Shown here in pieces: positions 1-6,773 of a stretch of DNA of 6,773 nt; the stretch's first letter is position 1; each line of letters begins with the position of its first letter. The notes beneath the pieces are model-generated. The model had not been told where the DNA came from, did no database searches, and saw only the letters and a program-made list of their open reading frames with translations. Source of the DNA: a virus (lineage: Duplodnaviria > Heunggongvirae > Uroviricota > Caudoviricetes). The translations under genes and the position numbers were made by a program. The stretch spans positions 1 to 6,773 of the IMG/VR virus record IMGVR_UViG_2778261086_000001. One strand, 5' to 3'.

Positions 1-117
1 ATTATATCGAATGTGATTACAATCGGTGGCGGCGGCACAGTTGGTGTGGCGGCCTCAGTCCGGAACAATTTGAAAACCAGAACCTCGCTTAGGCCTGTGT
101 CCATATTACGTGGGTAG

Positions 118-645
<528 letters not shown>

Positions 646-827
646 GGTAATATTAAATCGGAACATTTACATCGCGGAATGTAAAATTTAAATAAAAAGG
701 ACTCTTCCATGAGCCAAAATTCCTGAAATCTTAAGGGTAAGATAAAAGGTCTTAATCAGAATGACACGTTTTATTAATAAATAAAGCTATTCTTTCATTG
801 CTGTGTTTTTCTTTACAAAAGTAATCC

Positions 828-856
828 TTGCTATGGGTGGTTAATCATGCGTTAAT
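828..856 (+). promoter_or_regulatory. Putative sigma70 promoter of cspI (TTGCTA-N17-GTTAAT), implying a ~145-nt 5' UTR
   Basis: Hexamers TTGCTA (828-833) and GTTAAT (851-856) with a 17-bp spacer in AT-rich DNA. Resembles the cspA promoter layout (TTGCAT-N17-CTTAAT, from memory). The predicted start near 863 gives the long leader typical of cspA-family genes. By eye only. Confidence 0.3.
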
Positions 857-1007
857 GGTGTTCTGGTTTGTTACAAATTTATCTGAAGCAGTCATTGTTA
901 TAATTTTATTATTTGTACCTCTTGAGATTTCCTTGTTGGTTTTTCTCTCTGATATTTTTTTTCGGACCATTCTGCCCAAGGGCTAATTTCTTCAAAAGGT
1001 AATAATT

Positions 1008-1220
1008 ATGTCTAACAAAATGACTGGTTTAGTGAAATGGTTTAACCCTGAAAAAGGTTTTGGTTTCATCACGCCGAAAGATGGCAGCAAAGATGTGTTT
1101 GTCCATTTCTCAGCAATTCAGAGCAACGATTTCAAAACATTAACTGAGAATCAGGAAGTTGAATTTGGTATTGAGAACGGACCTAAAGGTCCTGCCGCTG
1201 TTCATGTAGTGGCGCTTTGA
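1008..1220 (+). CDS. cspI: Cold-shock protein, CspA family (CspI-like)
   Basis: 70-aa [41 protein letters not shown]... with the RNP1 (KGFGFI) and RNP2 (VFVHF) motifs of the cold-shock domain. The AAAGGTAATA Shine-Dalgarno context resembles cspA. Sequence matches my recollection of K-12 Qin CspI. Confidence 0.9.
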
Positions 1221-1242
1221 GGTAGACAATATTACAAACCAT

Positions 1243-1419
1243 ATTCACTTTAGATGCCCGTGTTGTCATGGTTCCCAGTATAGAACATCATCTTTTGATG
1301 TTTCTGACATGAATCCTTTCGGGGCAAAATGTATCTTTTGTAAATCAATGATGATTACATTTGATAATATTTCACAATACTTAAATGCCAGCCGTCTGTC
1401 GTTGGATTTAAAAAAGTGA
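1243..1419 (+). CDS. Putative zinc-ribbon small protein (CPCC...CIFC); start codon uncertain, no in-frame ATG/GTG/TTG upstream of the first Cys pair
   Basis: Open frame from 1210 to TGA 1417-1419 encoding ...HFRCPCCHGSQYRTSSFDVSDMNPFGAKCIFCKSMMITFDNISQYLNASRLSLDLKK. Two Cys pairs about 22 residues apart suggest a zinc ribbon. The only in-frame ATG (1309) lies after the first Cys pair; ATT at 1243 is used here as a nominal start. An intrinsic terminator follows immediately. Could be a start-codon-mutated pseudogene. Confidence 0.3.
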   Translation: MHFRCPCCHGSQYRTSSFDVSDMNPFGAKCIFCKSMMITFDNISQYLNASRLSLDLKK

Positions 1420-1423
1420 AAAT

Positions 1424-1448
1424 GAAGGCTCCTTCGGGAGCTTTTTTG
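1424..1448 (+). terminator. Rho-independent terminator closing the cspI / micro-ORF transcription unit
   Basis: GC stem GCTCC/GGAGC around a TTCG tetraloop (1428-1441), extendable by A-U pairs, followed by TTTTTT (1442-1447). Confidence 0.5.
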
Positions 1449-1491
1449 CTTGGTGTCTATTCGATGGATACTCACATACTACGGTAACATC

Positions 1492-1722
1492 ATGAAAAAA
1501 ATCATAGTTTTTTTTAACTCTGAACCAGCAGTGGTAGTGCCAGCGATGACTGGAGTTAACACCATCATGCGTGAATATCCAAATGGCGAAAAAACACACC
1601 TTACTGTAATGGCCGCAGGGTTTCCATCTCTGACCGGAGATCATAAAGTCATTTATGTAGCCGCGGATCGACATGTTACTTCAGAAGAAATTCTGGAAGC
1701 AGCAATAAGGCTCTTGAGTTGA
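1492..1722 (+). CDS. Small hypothetical protein of the Qin-type cold-shock cargo cluster (possibly YnfN/YmcE-like)
   Basis: 76-aa ORF MKKIIVFFNSEPAVVVPAMTGVNTIMREYPNGEKTHLTVMAAGFPSLTGDHKVIYVAADRHVTSEEILEAAIRLLS, immediately upstream of gnsB on the same strand. No strong Shine-Dalgarno at 1492. An internal ATG at 1567 (GGAG 11 nt upstream) would give 51 aa. Identity is inferred from position, not from recognised sequence. Confidence 0.5.
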   Translation: MKKIIVFFNSEPAVVVPAMTGVNTIMREYPNGEKTHLTVMAAGFPSLTGDHKVIYVAADRHVTSEEILEAAIRLLS

Positions 1723-1811
1723 TTTGATGCTATTGCATTGATAATTCAGGAAAATTCTCTTTGTCTGTTTGTGTAAAATTTAGACTATCGTATGTTGATT
1801 ATTGCGATGTT

Positions 1812-1846
1812 TCATCTTATCTTTTACACGTTTGCACCATATAATC
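1812..1846 (+). promoter_or_regulatory. Putative promoter upstream of gnsB (consensus -10 TATAAT at 1840-1845)
   Basis: Perfect TATAAT hexamer 48 nt upstream of the gnsB start. No well-spaced -35 (TTTACA at 1823-1828 is only 11 bp away). Weak call. Confidence 0.25.
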
Positions 1847-1893
1847 GACTTACTGTGTAACTGGAAAGTCATAACAGACTAAAAGAGGAAATG

Positions 1894-2067
1894 ATGAATA
1901 TTGAAAACTTAAAAACAAAAGCAGAAGCAGATATTTCTGAATATATAACAAAAAAAATTATTGAACTTAAGAAAAAGACCGGGAAAGAAGTTACCAGTAT
2001 TCAGTTTACCGCACGGGAAAAAATGACGGGTCTTGAAAGCTATGATGTCAAGATTAATTTAATCTGA
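1894..2067 (+). CDS. gnsB: GnsB (GnsA/GnsB family small protein, Qin prophage)
   Basis: 57-aa ORF MNIENLKTKAEADISEYITKKIIELKKKTGKEVTSIQFTAREKMTGLESYDVKINLI with AAGAGG Shine-Dalgarno 5 nt upstream. Matches my recollection of GnsB and closely resembles GnsA. Confidence 0.85.
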   Translation: MNIENLKTKAEADISEYITKKIIELKKKTGKEVTSIQFTAREKMTGLESYDVKINLI

Positions 2068-2093
2068 TGTATTCAATAATAAAATTTATCCAT

Positions 2094-2125
2094 AAACCTC
2101 GTTTTTACGGGGTTTTGTTATATTT
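2094..2125 (+). terminator. Putative intrinsic terminator downstream of gnsB
   Basis: Hairpin AAACCTCG / CGGGGTTT (2094-2101 and 2108-2115) with a 6-nt loop, followed by a T-rich stretch (TGTTATATTT). Confidence 0.4.
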
Positions 2126-2181
2126 GAATGGTTCCGAATATCTAAATCACAATTGTTGATGGTTTTTATTAAACCAATGCA

Positions 2182-2210
2182 GTCCGGCTCAGGAGTGAGA
2201 GAAGCCGGAC
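2182..2210 (-). terminator. Putative intrinsic terminator of the minus-strand ynfO-ydfO unit
   Basis: Perfect 8-bp stem GTCCGGCT / AGCCGGAC (2182-2189 and 2203-2210) directly 3' of the ydfO stop on the minus strand, followed on that strand by a U-containing tract (UGCAUUGGUUUAAU). Confidence 0.35.
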
Positions 2211-2218
2211 GTTATGGT

Positions 2219-2629
2219 TTAGCGTGGTAAGATCTGTGTAGTTTTCTGGATGCTTTCAGTAAATAGTAATGAATTATCAAAGGTATAGTAATATCTTTTT
2301 TGTTCGTGGATATTTGTAACCCACCGAAAAACTCCTGCTTTAGCAAGGTTTCTTCTGTATTCCTGAAATGTGATCTCTCTGGATTTCAGCTTATTAGAGG
2401 TCGTTTCTATAAGATGCCTATCCTTTGAAAATTTGACAGACACAATGTTTTTTAGGCCCTTTAATAACACTGTATTATCATTTTTTAATACAATATGAAC
2501 ATTCTCTGTGGCTAAATAGTAAATGTAATGTGAGACATTGTGACGTTTTAGCTCAGAATAAAACCATTGATAGTTTAAATCGTTTCGAACTTTATCAAAT
2601 ATTTGTTTAAAAATGACTACCTGATCCAT
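2219..2629 (-). CDS. ydfO: DUF1398-family protein (YdfO/YbcV-like prophage protein)
   Basis: Minus-strand [34 protein letters not shown]...QKTTQILPR (136 aa from ATG 2629; the track's extended start at 2644 gives 141 aa). Neither start has a strong Shine-Dalgarno. Matches my recollection of K-12 Qin YdfO; lies in the Rz-cos interval as YbcV does in DLP12. Confidence 0.75.
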
Positions 2630-2686
2630 AGATAAACCGTCCATGTGATATGAGGGGGCGTAGTCTGCACGATTATCTAAATTGCT

Positions 2687-2920
2687 TCAATCTGGTCTGA
2701 CCTGTTTTCTGAGCAATTCAGTAATGTCACTCTTTTCTTTGTTTGCTTCAGAAGAAACTCTTTTTTCTGAGCACAGTCTCCGGCGGCAGGCTTCAATGAC
2801 CCAGGCTGAGAAATTCCCGGACCCTTTTTGCTCAAGAGCGATGTTAATTTGTTCAATCATTTGGTTAGGAAAGCGGATGTTGCGGGTTGTTGTTCTGCGG
2901 GTTCTGTTCTTCGTTGACAT
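2687..2920 (-). CDS. ynfO: Small ribbon-helix-helix-like protein (YnfO/YlcI-like), directly upstream of ydfO on the same strand
   Basis: 77-aa minus-strand ORF MSTKNRTRRTTTRNIRFPNQMIEQINIALEQKGSGNFSAWVIEACRRRL... The pattern of a basic N-terminus, a short strand (RNIRFP), helix, Gly turn and second helix is RHH-like. The antisense + ORF 2682..2948 was rejected. The lambda right end just before cos carries a similar small minus-strand ORF, as far as I recall. Confidence 0.65.
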   Translation of the reverse strand: MSTKNRTRRTTTRNIRFPNQMIEQINIALEQKGSGNFSAWVIEACRRRLCSEKRVSSEANKEKSDITELLRKQVRPD

Positions 2921-3094
2921 GAGGTTGCCCCGTATTCAGTGTCGCTGATTTGTATTGTCTGAAGTTGTTTTTACGTTAAGTTGATGCAGATCAATTAATA
3001 CGATACCTGCGTCATAATTGATTATTTGACGTGGTTTGATGGCCTCCACGCACGTTGTGATATGTAGATGATAATCATTATCACTTTACGGGTC

Positions 3095-3295
3095 CTTTCC
3101 GGTGATCCGACAGGTTACGGGGCGGCGACCTCGCGGGTTTTCGCTATTTATGAAAATTTTCCGGTTTAAGGCGTTTCCGTTCTTCTTCGTCGTAACTTAA
3201 TGTTTTTATTTAAAATACCCCCTAAAAAGAAAGGAAACGACAGGTGCTGAAAACGAACTTTTGGGCCTCTGTCGTTTCCTTTCTCTGTTTTTGGC
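3095..3295. other. Lambdoid cos site: cosQ, cosN (12-nt cohesive end GGGCGGCGACCT at 3120-3131) and cosB with terminase R sites
   Basis: 3090-3119 reads ...GGGTCCTTTCCGGTGATCCGACAGGTTACG (the lambda right end) followed at 3120 by GGGCGGCGACCTCGCGGGTTTTCGCTATTTATGAAAATTTTCCGGTTTAAGGCGTTTCCGTTCTTCTTCG..., which is near-identical to the first ~190 nt of the lambda genome as I remember it, and leads into the Nu1 homolog. Confidence 0.9.
3229..3283. repeat. Perfect 15-bp inverted repeat GAAAGGAAACGACAG / CTGTCGTTTCCTTTC (lambda cosB R2/R1 terminase small-subunit binding sites)
   Basis: 3229-3243 and 3269-3283 are exact reverse complements. A third copy of the CGTTTCC core (R3) lies at about 3172-3183. 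Confidence 0.7.
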
Positions 3296-3308
3296 CGTGG
3301 AATGAACA

Positions 3309-3830
3309 ATGGAAGTCAACAAAAAGCAGCTGGCTGACATTTTCGGTGCGAGTATCCGTACCATTCAGAACTGGCAGGAACAGGGAATGCCCGTTCTGCG
3401 AGGCGGTGGCAAGGGTAATGAGGTGCTTTATGACTCTGCCGCCGTTATAAGATGGTATGCCGAAAGGGATGCTGAAATTGAGAACGAAAAGCTGCGCCGG
3501 GAAGTTGAAGAACTGCGGCGGGCCAGCGAGACAGATCTCCAGCCAGGGACTATTGAGTACGAACGCCATCGACTTACGCGTGCGCAGGCCGACGCACAGG
3601 AGCTGAAAAATGCCAGAGACTCCGCTGAAGTGGTGGAAACCGCATTCTGTACTTTCGTGCTGTCGCGGATCGCAGGTGAAATTGCCAGTATTCTCGACGG
3701 GATCCCCCTGTCGGTGCAGCGGCGTTTTCCGGAACTGGAAAACCGACATGTTGATTTCCTGAAACGGGATATCATCAAAGCCATGAACAAAGCAGCCGCG
3801 CTGGATGAACTGATACAGCATGGACGTTGA
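3309..3830 (+). CDS. nohA: Terminase small subunit Nu1 homolog, C-terminally truncated (NohA/NohQ-like)
   Basis: 173-aa [72 protein letters not shown]... that follows lambda Nu1 (181 aa) closely through residue ~168 and then ends ...ELIQHGR instead of ELIPGLLSEYIEQSG. No terminase large subunit gene follows. Confidence 0.9.
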
Positions 3831-6696
3831 GTACGGTCAGTACAGCGTTATTCTGTTGGTGGAGGGATTCCCGCCGTCACATGCCGGGACCATCACCGTG
3901 TATGAAGATTCTCAACCCGGTACGCTGAATGATTTTCTCGGTGCCATGACGGAGGATGATGCCCGTCCGGAGGCACTGCGTCGTTTTGAACTGATGGTGG
4001 AAGAGGTGGCGCGTAACGCGTCCGTGGTGGCACAGAACACGGCAGCCGCAAAGAAGTCAGCCAGTGATGCCAGCACATCTGCCAGTGAGGCGGCAACCCG
4101 TGCGACTGATGCTGCAGATTCAGCACGTGCAGCCAGCACGTCAGCCGGACAGGCCGCGTCGTCGGCTCAGTCAGCGTCTTCCAGCGCAGGAACGGCATCA
4201 ACAAAGGCCACTGAAGCCTCAAAAAGTGCTGCCGCTGCAGAGTCCTCAAAAAGCGCGGCGGCTACCAGTGCCGGTGCGGCGAAAACGTCAGAAACGAATG
4301 CGGCAGCGTCAGAACAATCAGCCGCCACTTCTGCATCCACCGCGACCACGAAAGCGTCAGAAGCTGCCACCTCAGCCAGGGATGCGTCGGCTTCAAAAGA
4401 GGCGGCAAAATCATCAGAAACGAGCGCAGCCTCGAGCGCCAGTCGTGCAGCCTCCTCGGCAACAGCGGCAGGAACTTCCGCGAAGGCGGCAAAAACGTCC
4501 GAGACGAACGCAAAGTCTTCTGAGACGGCAGCGGGACAGAGTGCCTCCGCAGCAGCAGACTCAAAAACAGCGGCTGCCTCATCTGCCAGCGCCGCGTCAA
4601 CAAATGCCGGGCAGGCCTCAGCCAGTGCCACCGCTGCCGGAAAGTCGGCAGAAAGCGCCGCATCATCCGCTTCAACAGCCACAACGAAGGCTGGCGAAGC
4701 CACTGAACAGGCCACGGTAGCAGCGAGGTCAGCTTCCGCAGCGAAGACATCCGAAACGAACGCGAAAGCGTCGGAAACCAGCGCAGAATCCTCAAAAACG
4801 GCTGCCGCATCGTCAGCCAGTTCGGCGGCGTCATCGGCATCATCGGCGTCTGCTTCAAAAGATGAGGCGACCAGACAGGCGTCAGCAGCGAAGGGCAGCG
4901 CCACGACGGCATCCACGAAGGCGACAGAGGCAGCTGGCAGTGCGACGGCGGCAGCTCAGAGCAAAAGTACGGCGGAATCCGCGGCAACGCGCGCCGAGAC
5001 AGCAGCAAAACGGGCAGAGGATATTGCATCCGCCGTGGCGCTTGAGGATGCGAGCACGACGAAAAAGGGGATAGTACAGCTCAGCAGTGCGACCAACAGT
5101 ACGTCTGAAACGCTGGCGGCAACGCCAAAGGCAGTAAAATCAGCCTATGACAATGCAGAGAAACGTCTGCAGAAAGACCAGAACGGCACTGATATACCCG
5201 ATAAGGGACGCTTCCTGAACAACATTAACGCGGTCAGTAAAATAGACTTTGCTGATAAGCGTGGTATGCGTTATGTGCGGGTTAACGCTCCTGCAGGTGC
5301 AACATCTGGAAAATATTACCCTGTTGTTGTTATGCGTTCTGCTGGCTCAGTAAGCGAACTGGCATCAAGGGTCATTATCACCACGGCAACGCGAACCGCA
5401 GGCGATCCGATGAATAACTGCGAGTTTAACGGATTTGTTATGCCTGGTGGCTGGACTGACAGGGGGCGTTATGCTTATGGAATGTTCTGGCAATATCAAA
5501 ACAATGAACGAGCCATCCACTCAATAATGATGAGTAATAAGGGCGATGATTTGCGCTCTGTGTTCTATGTTGATGGCGCTGCTTTCCCTGTTTTTGCGTT
5601 TATCGAAGATGGCCTGTCAATATCCGCACCTGGTGCTGATCTCGTTGTTAATGATACGACCTATAAGTTTGGGGCAACAAATCCAGCGACTGAATGTATC
5701 GCGGCGGACGTTATCCTTGATTTTAAGAGTGGGCGTGGTTTTTATGAGTCTCATTCGTTAATCGTTAACGATAATTTGTCGTGCAAAAAACTTTTTGCCA
5801 CAGACGAAATTGTAGCGCGTGGTGGTAATCAGATTCGAATGATAGGTGGGGAGTATGGTGCATTATGGCGTAATGATGGCGCTAAAACTTACCTGCTGCT
5901 TACCAATCAAGGTGATGTTTATGGTGGCTGGAATACATTAAGACCGTTTGCTATTGATAACGCAACCGGCGAACTGGTTATTGGAACCAAACTGTCCGCA
6001 AGTCTGAACGGTAATGCATTAACAGCAACAAAGCTGCAAACGCCAAGACTGGTTTCTGGTGTTGAGTTTGATGGTTCCAGAGATATTACTTTAACCGCCG
6101 CGCATGTGGCTGCTTTTGCCAGAAGGGCAACGGATACATATGCCGATGCGGATGGTGGCGTTCCCTGGAATGCCGAATCAGGTGCTTACAATGTCACCCG
6201 CTCTGGCGACAGCTATATTCTGGTTAACTTCTATACCGGAGTCGGAAGTTGCCGGACCTTGCAGATGAAGGCGCATTACAGAAATGGTGGTCTGTTCTAC
6301 CGTTCTTCAAGAGACGGTTATGGTTTTGAGGATGACTGGGCAGAAGTTTATACCTCGAAAAATCTTCCACCAGAAAGCTACCCAGTCGGCGCACCAATCC
6401 CGTGGCCATCAGATACCGTTCCGTCTGGCTATGCCCTGATGCAGGGGCAGACTTTTGACAAATCTGCATACCCGAAACTTGCAGTGGCTTATCCGTCAGG
6501 CGTTATTCCTGATATGCGTGGCTGGACGATTAAGGGCAAGCCCGCCAGTGGTCGTGCCGTATTGTCTCAGGAACAGGACGGCATTAAATCGCACACCCAC
6601 AGCGCCAGCGCATCCAGTACGGATTTGGGGACGAAAACCACATCATCGTTTGATTACGGCACTAAATCCACGAATAACACTGGTGCACATACCCAT
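3820..6696 (+). pseudogene. stf: Side tail fibre gene (lambda Stf / StfQ/StfR family), missing ~50 N-terminal codons through the deletion that fused it to nohA, and cut at the 3' end by IS2
   Basis: Hand translation from ATG 3820 (11 nt overlap with the nohA stop) gives [72 protein letters not shown]..., which aligns with lambda Stf from residue ~51. A long Ala/Ser/Thr-rich repeat shaft follows, then a beta-rich domain (...[21 protein letters not shown]...), then a lambda-like C-terminal region (...[74 protein letters not shown]...TNNTGAHTH). The frame has no stop to the window end but is replaced by IS2 sequence at 6697. Confidence 0.8.
4040..5010 (+). repeat. Degenerate tandem repeats encoding the Ala/Ser/Thr-rich tail-fibre shaft (recurring AAKTSETNA...SASTATTKA units)
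   Basis: Recurrent DNA motifs such as GCGGCAAAAACGTCNGAGACGAANGC at about 4270, 4490 and 4745. High GC and strong codon periodicity generate the long spurious ORFs in other frames and on the opposite strand (4064..4720 +, 4167..4916 -, 4262..5029 -). Confidence 0.5.
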
Positions 6697-6773
6697 TGGA
6701 TTTGCCCCTATATTTCCAGACACCTGTTATCACTTAACCCATTACTGGCCTGCTGCCGCAGATATTCCCGTGG
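6697..6773 (-). mobile_element. IS2 insertion sequence, right inverted repeat and 3' end of orfB (partial; continues beyond the window)
   Basis: TGGATTTGCCCCTATATTTCCAGACACCTGTTATCACTTAACCCATTAC...CCGCAGATATTCCCGTGG matches my recollection of the IS2 terminal inverted repeat and adjoining insD 3' end. It begins abruptly inside the tail-fibre frame. Confidence 0.85.
6708..6773 (-). CDS. insD: IS2 transposase OrfB (InsD), C-terminal 21 codons only (partial at the window edge)
   Basis: Minus-strand translation of 6773..6708 gives ...[21 protein letters not shown] followed by a stop (TAG, complement of 6708-6710), consistent with an IS2 transposase reading into the terminal repeat. Confidence 0.65.

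Follow-up and report, generated by a model that had tools for sequence, protein, structure and literature searches.

Introduction

Two genes of Escherichia coli, infC and pcnB, are initiated at AUU, and in infC this codon serves the autoregulation of IF3. The AUU start of infC is cited in PMC2268962, and non-canonical starts are disfavoured by IF3 (PMC2268962; PMC12548453). In coupled gene pairs such as M13 gene V-VII and the trp operon, the intercistronic distance is very short, a Shine-Dalgarno motif lies within the upstream gene or at its end, and ribosomes re-initiate at AUG or GUG (PMC2268962; PMC12548453). The efficiency of coupling drops as the intercistronic distance grows, and re-initiation is helped by a Shine-Dalgarno sequence (PMC2268962; PMC12548453).

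The closest described relative of the gene considered here is ymcF, a core gene downstream of cspG. Its paralogue ynfQ has been listed among the uncharacterised genes of the Qin prophage (PMC11551758). The two genes are alike in product length (62 aa, with ~65% identity between YnfQ and E. coli YmcF), in the ATT start, in a TAAGG-type motif with the csp stop 10 nt upstream, and in a hairpin and T-run directly after the stop. They differ in that ynfQ is a prophage-borne copy (Qin, lambdoid phage), whereas ymcF is found in nearly all E. coli.

Here we analysed a window of 6,773 nt, positions 1 to 6,773 of the IMG/VR virus record IMGVR_UViG_2778261086_000001 (Caudoviricetes). The window matches the Qin prophage of E. 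coli K-12 with 100% identity. The cspI-ynfQ pair in this window resembles the classic coupled pairs in its very short intercistronic distance and in the position of its Shine-Dalgarno-like motif at the end of the upstream gene. It differs from them in that the ynfQ start is a near-cognate AUU, or AUC in some relatives, and in that coupling is proposed from comparative genomics. ynfQ resembles infC and pcnB in that its AUU initiation codon is conserved and follows a Shine-Dalgarno motif. In the ynfQ family, however, AUU or AUC goes together with an upstream stop codon at a distance of 9-10 nt, and ATG takes its place where the upstream gene is missing. Taken as a whole, we consider it highly likely that the frame is the ynfQ gene, that it starts at the AUU at 1231, that its initiation would be coupled to cspI, and that it encodes a putative metal-binding protein acting with Csp.

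Results

The Cys-rich frame downstream of cspI is ynfQ

The frame that opens after a TAG at 1207-1209 runs for about 70 sense codons and closes with a TGA at 1417-1419. A sequence-only reading of this DNA had described the frame from 1210 to 1419 as open and as encoding a Cys-pair protein, with no in-frame ATG, GTG or TTG ahead of the first Cys pair. This description was accurate, and no such codon occurs in the window between the TAG at 1207-1209 and the first Cys. As had also been stated, an ATG-based ORF track misses the frame; the program-made list holds only a 36-aa ATG ORF at 1309-1419. RefSeq annotates ynfQ from 1231 and names the product either 'cold-shock protein' or 'cold shock small protein YmcF'. 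The 62-aa product matched the Pfam family PF23641 ("YmcF-like") with 111.8 bits against a cut-off of 27 (E 1.7e-32), with residues 1-62 aligned to positions 1-62 of 62, which places the ynfQ frame far beyond chance. All invariant columns of the PF23641 core, IHFRCPCCHGSQYRTSxFD...NPFGAKCIFCKS, as given by two alignments, are found in the window protein. The features of the locus are as follows.

148-645, plus strand: rzpQ, neighbouring gene (RefSeq)
862-1007, plus strand: cspI 5' untranslated leader, cspA-type thermoregulator (Rfam RF01766)
1008-1220, plus strand: cspI coding sequence, 70 aa, stop TGA at 1218-1220 (RefSeq, ORF list)
1231-1419, plus strand: ynfQ coding sequence, 62 aa, YmcF-like family; ATT start at 1231-1233, TGA stop at 1417-1419 (RefSeq WP_071524604.1)
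1422-1487, plus strand: ynfR, 21-codon ORF (RefSeq)
1425-1447, plus strand: intrinsic-terminator-like hairpin with T6 (folding, sequence)
1492-1722, plus strand: ynfN, neighbouring gene (RefSeq)
1893-2066, plus strand: gnsB, neighbouring gene (RefSeq)

The Cys-rich frame is thus ynfQ, a gene that is already annotated, named and in Pfam and is not new. The sequence-only reading had missed this, together with the overlap of ynfR with the terminator and the reported read-through into ynfR and ynfN. The name ynfQ has also been used for another gene. The 'ynfQ' of VanOrsdel 2018 (PMC6001520) is a distinct gene, flanked by ydfJ and ydfK, for a 37-aa paralogue of YnaM; under its present name, ynfT, it lies at the right end of the window (6672-6773, minus strand).

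YnfQ belongs to a narrow family under purifying selection

The Qin-type cspI-ynfQ pair was found in 2153 of 5426 complete E. coli genomes, and the stretch 1000-1500 is present at 80% or more in 2128 of them. The cspG-ymcF paralogue is near-universal, with a match in 5415 of the 5426. The same cassette (S, ydfR, endolysin, Rz, cspI, ynfQ, ynfN, gnsB) is carried by the lambdoid phage Tritos. Among nine phage records with this ORF, five have no feature annotated under it, and no PHROG family was found for YnfQ. A search of a 5.8-billion-protein collection returned 132 homologues, nearly all from Enterobacteriaceae, mostly of 62 aa and named cold shock small protein YmcF. When 1.84 billion cluster representatives were searched with a profile, only 41 clusters came up, all of small standalone proteins, and the YmcF-like family therefore appears narrow, Enterobacterales-restricted and without informative distant relatives. 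NCBIfam NF047912 (ECs_2282 putative zinc-binding protein) scored 17.8 bits, below its cut-off of 37, and a PDB sequence search with YnfQ gave nothing significant.

Conservation was assessed on 80 loci from species-representative Enterobacterales genomes, which yielded 73 unique core coding sequences. In these 73 sequences, the variable columns at codon positions 1, 2 and 3 numbered 22, 17 and 44 (each of 45), and the column entropies summed to 16.6, 9.9 and 54.3, respectively. None of the 73 contains an in-frame stop. Cys9, Cys12, Cys34 and Cys37 are invariant, their codons alternating between TGC and TGT, and Cys11 is substituted twice. As the variation falls mostly on third positions and the Cys codons change only synonymously, the frame is under strong purifying selection and bears the mark of a translated gene. 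Frame, length and residues are kept across more than 15 genera.

These data bear on the suggestion in the sequence-only reading that the frame might be a recently start-mutated pseudogene, and equally on its being a chance open frame in the cspI 3' UTR. The lack of a canonical start, and the fact that standard ORF callers and five of the nine phage records leave the frame unannotated, would fit such an origin. It is opposed by the conservation in more than 15 genera with third-position-dominated variation, by the retention of ATT in 56 loci (see below), and by the existence of a Pfam family. Drift of the Cys codons or of the frame among homologues, which had been named as an argument against a gene, was not seen. 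We reject an inactivated or chance frame, whose probability we regard as negligible. ynfQ is best read, from these comparisons, as a translated and conserved gene starting at 1231.

Sequence comparison places the ynfQ start at ATT 1231

Of the starts that align with 1231 across the 80 loci, 56 are ATT, 21 ATG and 4 ATC, and ATT and ATC together account for 60 of the 80 species-level loci. The ATG of Klebsiella, Raoultella, Leclercia, Silvania, Enterobacter and Shimwellia aligns exactly with the ATT of Escherichia, Citrobacter and Kosakonia, and the ATC of Salmonella aligns with this same codon. Counted from here, the protein is 62 residues long in most lineages. Since other genera have ATG at the aligned codon and the length of 62 is shared, translation of ynfQ is placed at ATT 1231 rather than at 1243 or 1309. 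Several ATT loci besides the window are likewise without a canonical in-frame start ahead of Cys9.

The sequence-only reading had proposed an ATT start at 1231 or 1243, and had suggested aligning the interval with K-12 Qin and other homologues to see whether an ATG is present elsewhere. The K-12 sequence is identical to the window, and the ATG found at the aligned codon in 21 loci, together with the RefSeq start, singles out 1231. The ATT at 1243 was ruled out because both the ATG of the 21 loci and the first position of the Pfam profile fall on 1231. The ATG at 1309, which gives the 36-aa ORF, was ruled out because it would drop the invariant first Cys knuckle, half of the metal site as had been pointed out, and because residues 1-26 are under purifying selection. 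A candidate ribosome-binding motif lies immediately upstream of ATT 1231.

1219-1223, plus strand: Shine-Dalgarno-like GAGGT, read from sequence; 7 nt before the ATT and overlapping the cspI stop (tTGAGGt)

The GAGGT includes the final two bases of the cspI stop TGA (1218-1220). In the literature searched, we found no ribosome-profiling, N-terminal or mutational data on the ynfQ/ymcF start site.

ynfQ lies in a compact cspI unit with a probably leaky terminator

The Rfam cspA thermoregulator RF01766 matched 862-1247 with 112.8 bits (gathering score 78), in an alignment that is confident only up to the cspI stop. The 5' end of the cspI-ynfQ mRNA is likely to lie near 862. The terminator hairpin of the RF01766 model itself is deleted in the alignment, which places ynfQ between the cspI stop and the terminator. 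The RF01766 match, which takes in the cspI leader and coding region, is absent from the RefSeq features of this stretch. The locus is a compact unit consisting of the leader from ~862, cspI, a 10-nt spacer, ynfQ and the hairpin/T-run terminator at 1425-1447. The idea, also raised in the sequence-only reading, that the frame is a translated 3' element of the cspI transcript holds in so far as ynfQ lies between cspI and the terminator and its initiation is probably coupled, but ynfQ is a separate cistron.

A terminator directly after the frame had been noticed previously, and we find it as a hairpin that starts 6 nt past the ynfQ stop. Its core stem, GCUCC-UUCG-GGAGC, spans 1428-1441, can be extended to 1425-1444 and is followed by T6 at 1442-1447. 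The 56-nt hairpin context has an MFE of -15.3 kcal/mol (z = -2.6); the consensus scan gave the stem on the minus strand only, and the plus-strand reading is taken from the sequence. A GC-rich hairpin and T-run after the stop were also found in E. coli ymcF and in Citrobacter, Salmonella, Klebsiella, Raoultella and Kosakonia, with stems that differ. The recurrence of hairpin and T-run with divergent stems supports a functional terminator closing the csp-ymcF operon.

The start of ynfR lies 2 nt beyond the ynfQ stop, and its ORF traverses the hairpin, codons 3-9 being the terminator hairpin and T-run. A ynfR overlapping the terminator is found only behind the Qin copy. Cold shock strongly induces YnfR-SPA (PMC6001520), and the induction ratios of cspI, ynfQ and ynfN were near-equal in one transcriptome study (PMC11228462). 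Because ynfR crosses the hairpin, YnfR-SPA is cold-induced and ynfN is co-induced with cspI and ynfQ, the Qin terminator is probably leaky. A close E. coli variant of the locus (L006) has an earlier in-frame ynfR stop that leaves 12 codons, so the peptide sequence of ynfR may be less important than the act of translating through the terminator.

The start and length of the next gene, ynfN, look unsettled. The 76-aa ORF from the ATG at 1492 matched phrog_3425 over residues 1-76 of 76 (E 7e-54), and phrog_4911 covers residues 26-76 only. In Tritos, ynfN is annotated with 51 aa (L082, 2837-2992), equivalent to a start at ATG 1567 of the window. One RefSeq K-12 record gives ynfN as 'frameshifted' at 1492-1721, and homopolymer runs A7 and T8 lie at 1494-1520 in this region.

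An intact csp gene 9-10 nt upstream goes with a near-cognate start

The csp genes in the 80 loci were located by tblastn with CspI. In 53 loci and in the window, the ynfQ/ymcF start follows the end of an intact csp by 9-10 nt, and the start codon is ATT (49 loci and the window) or ATC (four loci). The csp stop, TAA or TGA, lies within a TAAGG or TGAGG Shine-Dalgarno-like motif in these 53 csp-linked loci and in the window. None of the 21 ATG loci has an intact csp ending 9-10 nt upstream. The gap is 10 nt in most lineages and 9 nt in Kosakonia, where both genes are in one frame. ATC, even rarer than ATT as a start, occurs in L014, L033, L048 (Salmonella) and L061 (Siccibacter) (position 1501), and in every one of these the csp stop is 10 nt upstream.

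In a rough NJ tree built on 135 nt, the ATG/no-csp state falls into three separate clades: Leclercia with Silvania and Enterobacter; Klebsiella with Raoultella and Shimwellia; and Citrobacter sedlakii, which is nested among Citrobacter with ATT and csp. Exceptions to the pattern are Atlantibacter, in which the ATT is followed directly by ATG; eight Pseudescherichia-type loci that have ATT without csp; and Enterobacter sp. EA-1, in which csp ends 29 nt upstream. Upstream of the ATG-start genes, tblastn detected no csp remnants except in C. sedlakii and Enterobacter sp. EA-1, and collinear similarity at the DNA level was limited to a marginal signal in two Klebsiella loci. Given that the loci belong to related lineages, with approximately three independent ATG clades, and that the NJ tree is rough, the link between csp and start codon is suggestive rather than statistical. 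We did not find this pattern in the papers searched.

Two of the exceptional loci deserve description. In C. sedlakii (L008, ~1258-1689), a csp-like ORF without a stop is fused in frame to the ATG-starting ymcF homologue, and conserved motifs are lost from the csp part (KWFN to KEFN, VFVHF to VFVPS); this could be either a decaying gene or a natural Csp-YmcF fusion. In Pseudescherichia (L017, 1483-1509), where there is no csp upstream, the ATT start of the ymcF homologue is overlapped by an 8-codon ATG mini-ORF, ATGAAAAAAGGATACTATTATTACTAA, to which its translation might be coupled instead. Most of the L017 upstream sequence recurs in the related Pseudescherichia-type loci; the mini-ORF was read in L017 only.

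The pattern across loci suggests that ynfQ initiation depends on ribosomes terminating on csp, and coupling from cspI to ynfQ is probable. The geometry is that expected for coupling, with a 10-nt gap and the TGA inside tTGAGGt in the window, and likewise gaps of 9-10 nt in the 53 other loci. The weak AUU would be used mainly by ribosomes that have just finished cspI, whose stop, 10 nt upstream, sits within the Shine-Dalgarno-like motif of ynfQ itself. YnfQ would then be made in a small, fixed proportion to Csp and be induced by cold along with it, and loss of csp would select for AUG at the ynfQ/ymcF start.

Initiation at AUU 1231 could alternatively occur de novo, with 30S subunits recruited by the GAGGT independently of cspI and the AUU keeping expression low or IF3-sensitive, as in infC. 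Such initiation would be consistent with the good spacing of GAGGT, 7 nt upstream of the ATT, which could alone support weak AUU initiation, with the discrimination of IF3 against non-canonical starts (PMC2268962), and with the Pseudescherichia loci, which keep ATT with an AAGGA motif in the absence of csp. It leaves unexplained, however, why the csp stop is at a fixed distance of 9-10 nt, inside the Shine-Dalgarno-like motif, in every csp-linked locus, and why ATC, weaker still, occurs four times and always csp-linked. ATG is found only where csp is absent or decaying, which would be unexpected were csp translation irrelevant. We consider cspI-independent initiation rather unlikely, while taking it seriously.

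The overlap of the two frames raises a further explanation, in which recoding from cspI, by a +1 frameshift in the 11-nt overlap (1210-1220) or by read-through of the stop, would yield a CspI-YnfQ fusion. An open ynfQ frame that reaches back to 1210, into the end of cspI, and the fusion of the csp and ymcF frames in C. sedlakii would fit this. The frame relation between csp and the downstream gene varies by lineage, however (10 nt mostly, 9 nt in Kosakonia), so no single recoding event is conserved, and the fusion was rejected on this ground. Moreover, csp-less genera start the protein with ATG at exactly this codon, the Pfam profile has 62 positions from there, and the csp part in C. sedlakii lacks the conserved motifs and looks like a decaying gene. 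Recoding is accordingly very improbable in our judgement. An inhibitory hairpin over the Shine-Dalgarno motif and start, opened by ribosomes translating cspI, was also considered; it folds in the window but is not supported across loci, where the fold energies of 60-nt windows did not beat those of shuffled sequences (z mostly above 0) and the structure was not conserved. The preferred reading remains coupling of ynfQ initiation to termination on cspI.

YnfQ has two invariant Cys knuckles and a predicted zinc-ribbon-like fold

The Cys residues of YnfQ are arranged in two putative metal knuckles.

1255-1266, plus strand: first putative metal knuckle, Cys9-Pro-Cys11-Cys12, with Cys9 and Cys12 invariant
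1330-1341, plus strand: second putative metal knuckle, Cys34-Ile-Phe-Cys37, with Cys34 and Cys37 invariant

The sequence-only reading had given the motif as RCPCCHG...22 aa...CIFCKS and likened the product to a small zinc ribbon. The two knuckles stand, and the spacing is corrected to 21 residues between Cys12 and Cys34. Two CxxC knuckles with four invariant Cys are the sequence signature of a Cys4 zinc ribbon, and knuckles ~21 residues apart on short beta-strands are a likeness to zinc-ribbon and rubredoxin-like modules. In an AF2 model based on a 49-sequence alignment (mean pLDDT 74), two short strands carry the knuckles and residues 44-58 form a C-terminal helix. The closest fold matches of this model, all weak, are Cys4 zinc ribbons, with the TFIIE-alpha zinc finger, the MqsA N-terminal domain, ribosomal eL43 and the UvrA zinc finger at the top. 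An AF3 model of YnfQ in a 2026 review shows a rubredoxin topology that includes a metal site (PMC13348028). A zinc-ribbon-like fold is therefore a reasonable but unproven prediction for YnfQ; the sequence fits it, and metal binding is predicted. YnfQ would bind one metal ion, most likely zinc, via Cys9, Cys12, Cys34 and Cys37, and would work alongside the Csp RNA chaperone, with nucleic acid or the ribosome as a plausible target.

The invariant motif HFRCPCCHGSQY (1246-1272, residues 6-14) has an additional conserved Cys11 and His13 beside the CxxC knuckle. The motif FRCPCCHGSQYR showed local likeness only to Rieske box II and to the UvrA zinc finger (E 0.05-0.1), the latter through CPxCHG..Y. 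Comparison of HFRCPCCHGSQY with Rieske box II (CPCHGSQY) was sub-significant (E 0.05), and an iron or Fe-S ligand set in place of zinc at this Cys/His motif is a possibility. Assignment to Rieske or other Fe-S proteins from CPCCHGSQY was rejected, as this match is sub-significant and box I (CxHxGC), which Rieske proteins have in addition to box II (CxCH), is absent; the second site, CIFC, has no His and thus does not provide a Rieske ligand set.

Discussion

As ynfQ is already known, the catalogue of genes gains nothing from this analysis. ATT-start genes escape ORF scans for ATG, GTG and TTG, as the five phage records that leave the ORF unannotated and the missing PHROG family illustrate. What remains of interest is the function of the YmcF/YnfQ family and the association between the start codon and the csp stop, which suggests Csp-coupled near-cognate re-initiation. 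The association is of modest interest in itself, as a testable hypothesis for the use of a rare near-cognate start in E. coli.

In its strongest form, this hypothesis states that YmcF/YnfQ in Enterobacteriaceae would be made by obligate termination-reinitiation from csp via AUU or AUC, that its synthesis would be stoichiometric with Csp, and that csp loss would lead to AUG. We put this form forward tentatively, as a possibility that falls somewhat short of an even chance. If this holds, the family would exemplify near-cognate re-initiation that is natural and conserved, and YmcF/YnfQ would stand out as a functional partner of the Csp RNA chaperones. The pattern suggests that YmcF, a small protein near-universal in E. 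coli, and its prophage copy YnfQ are coupled to the Csp RNA chaperones in the cold-shock response.
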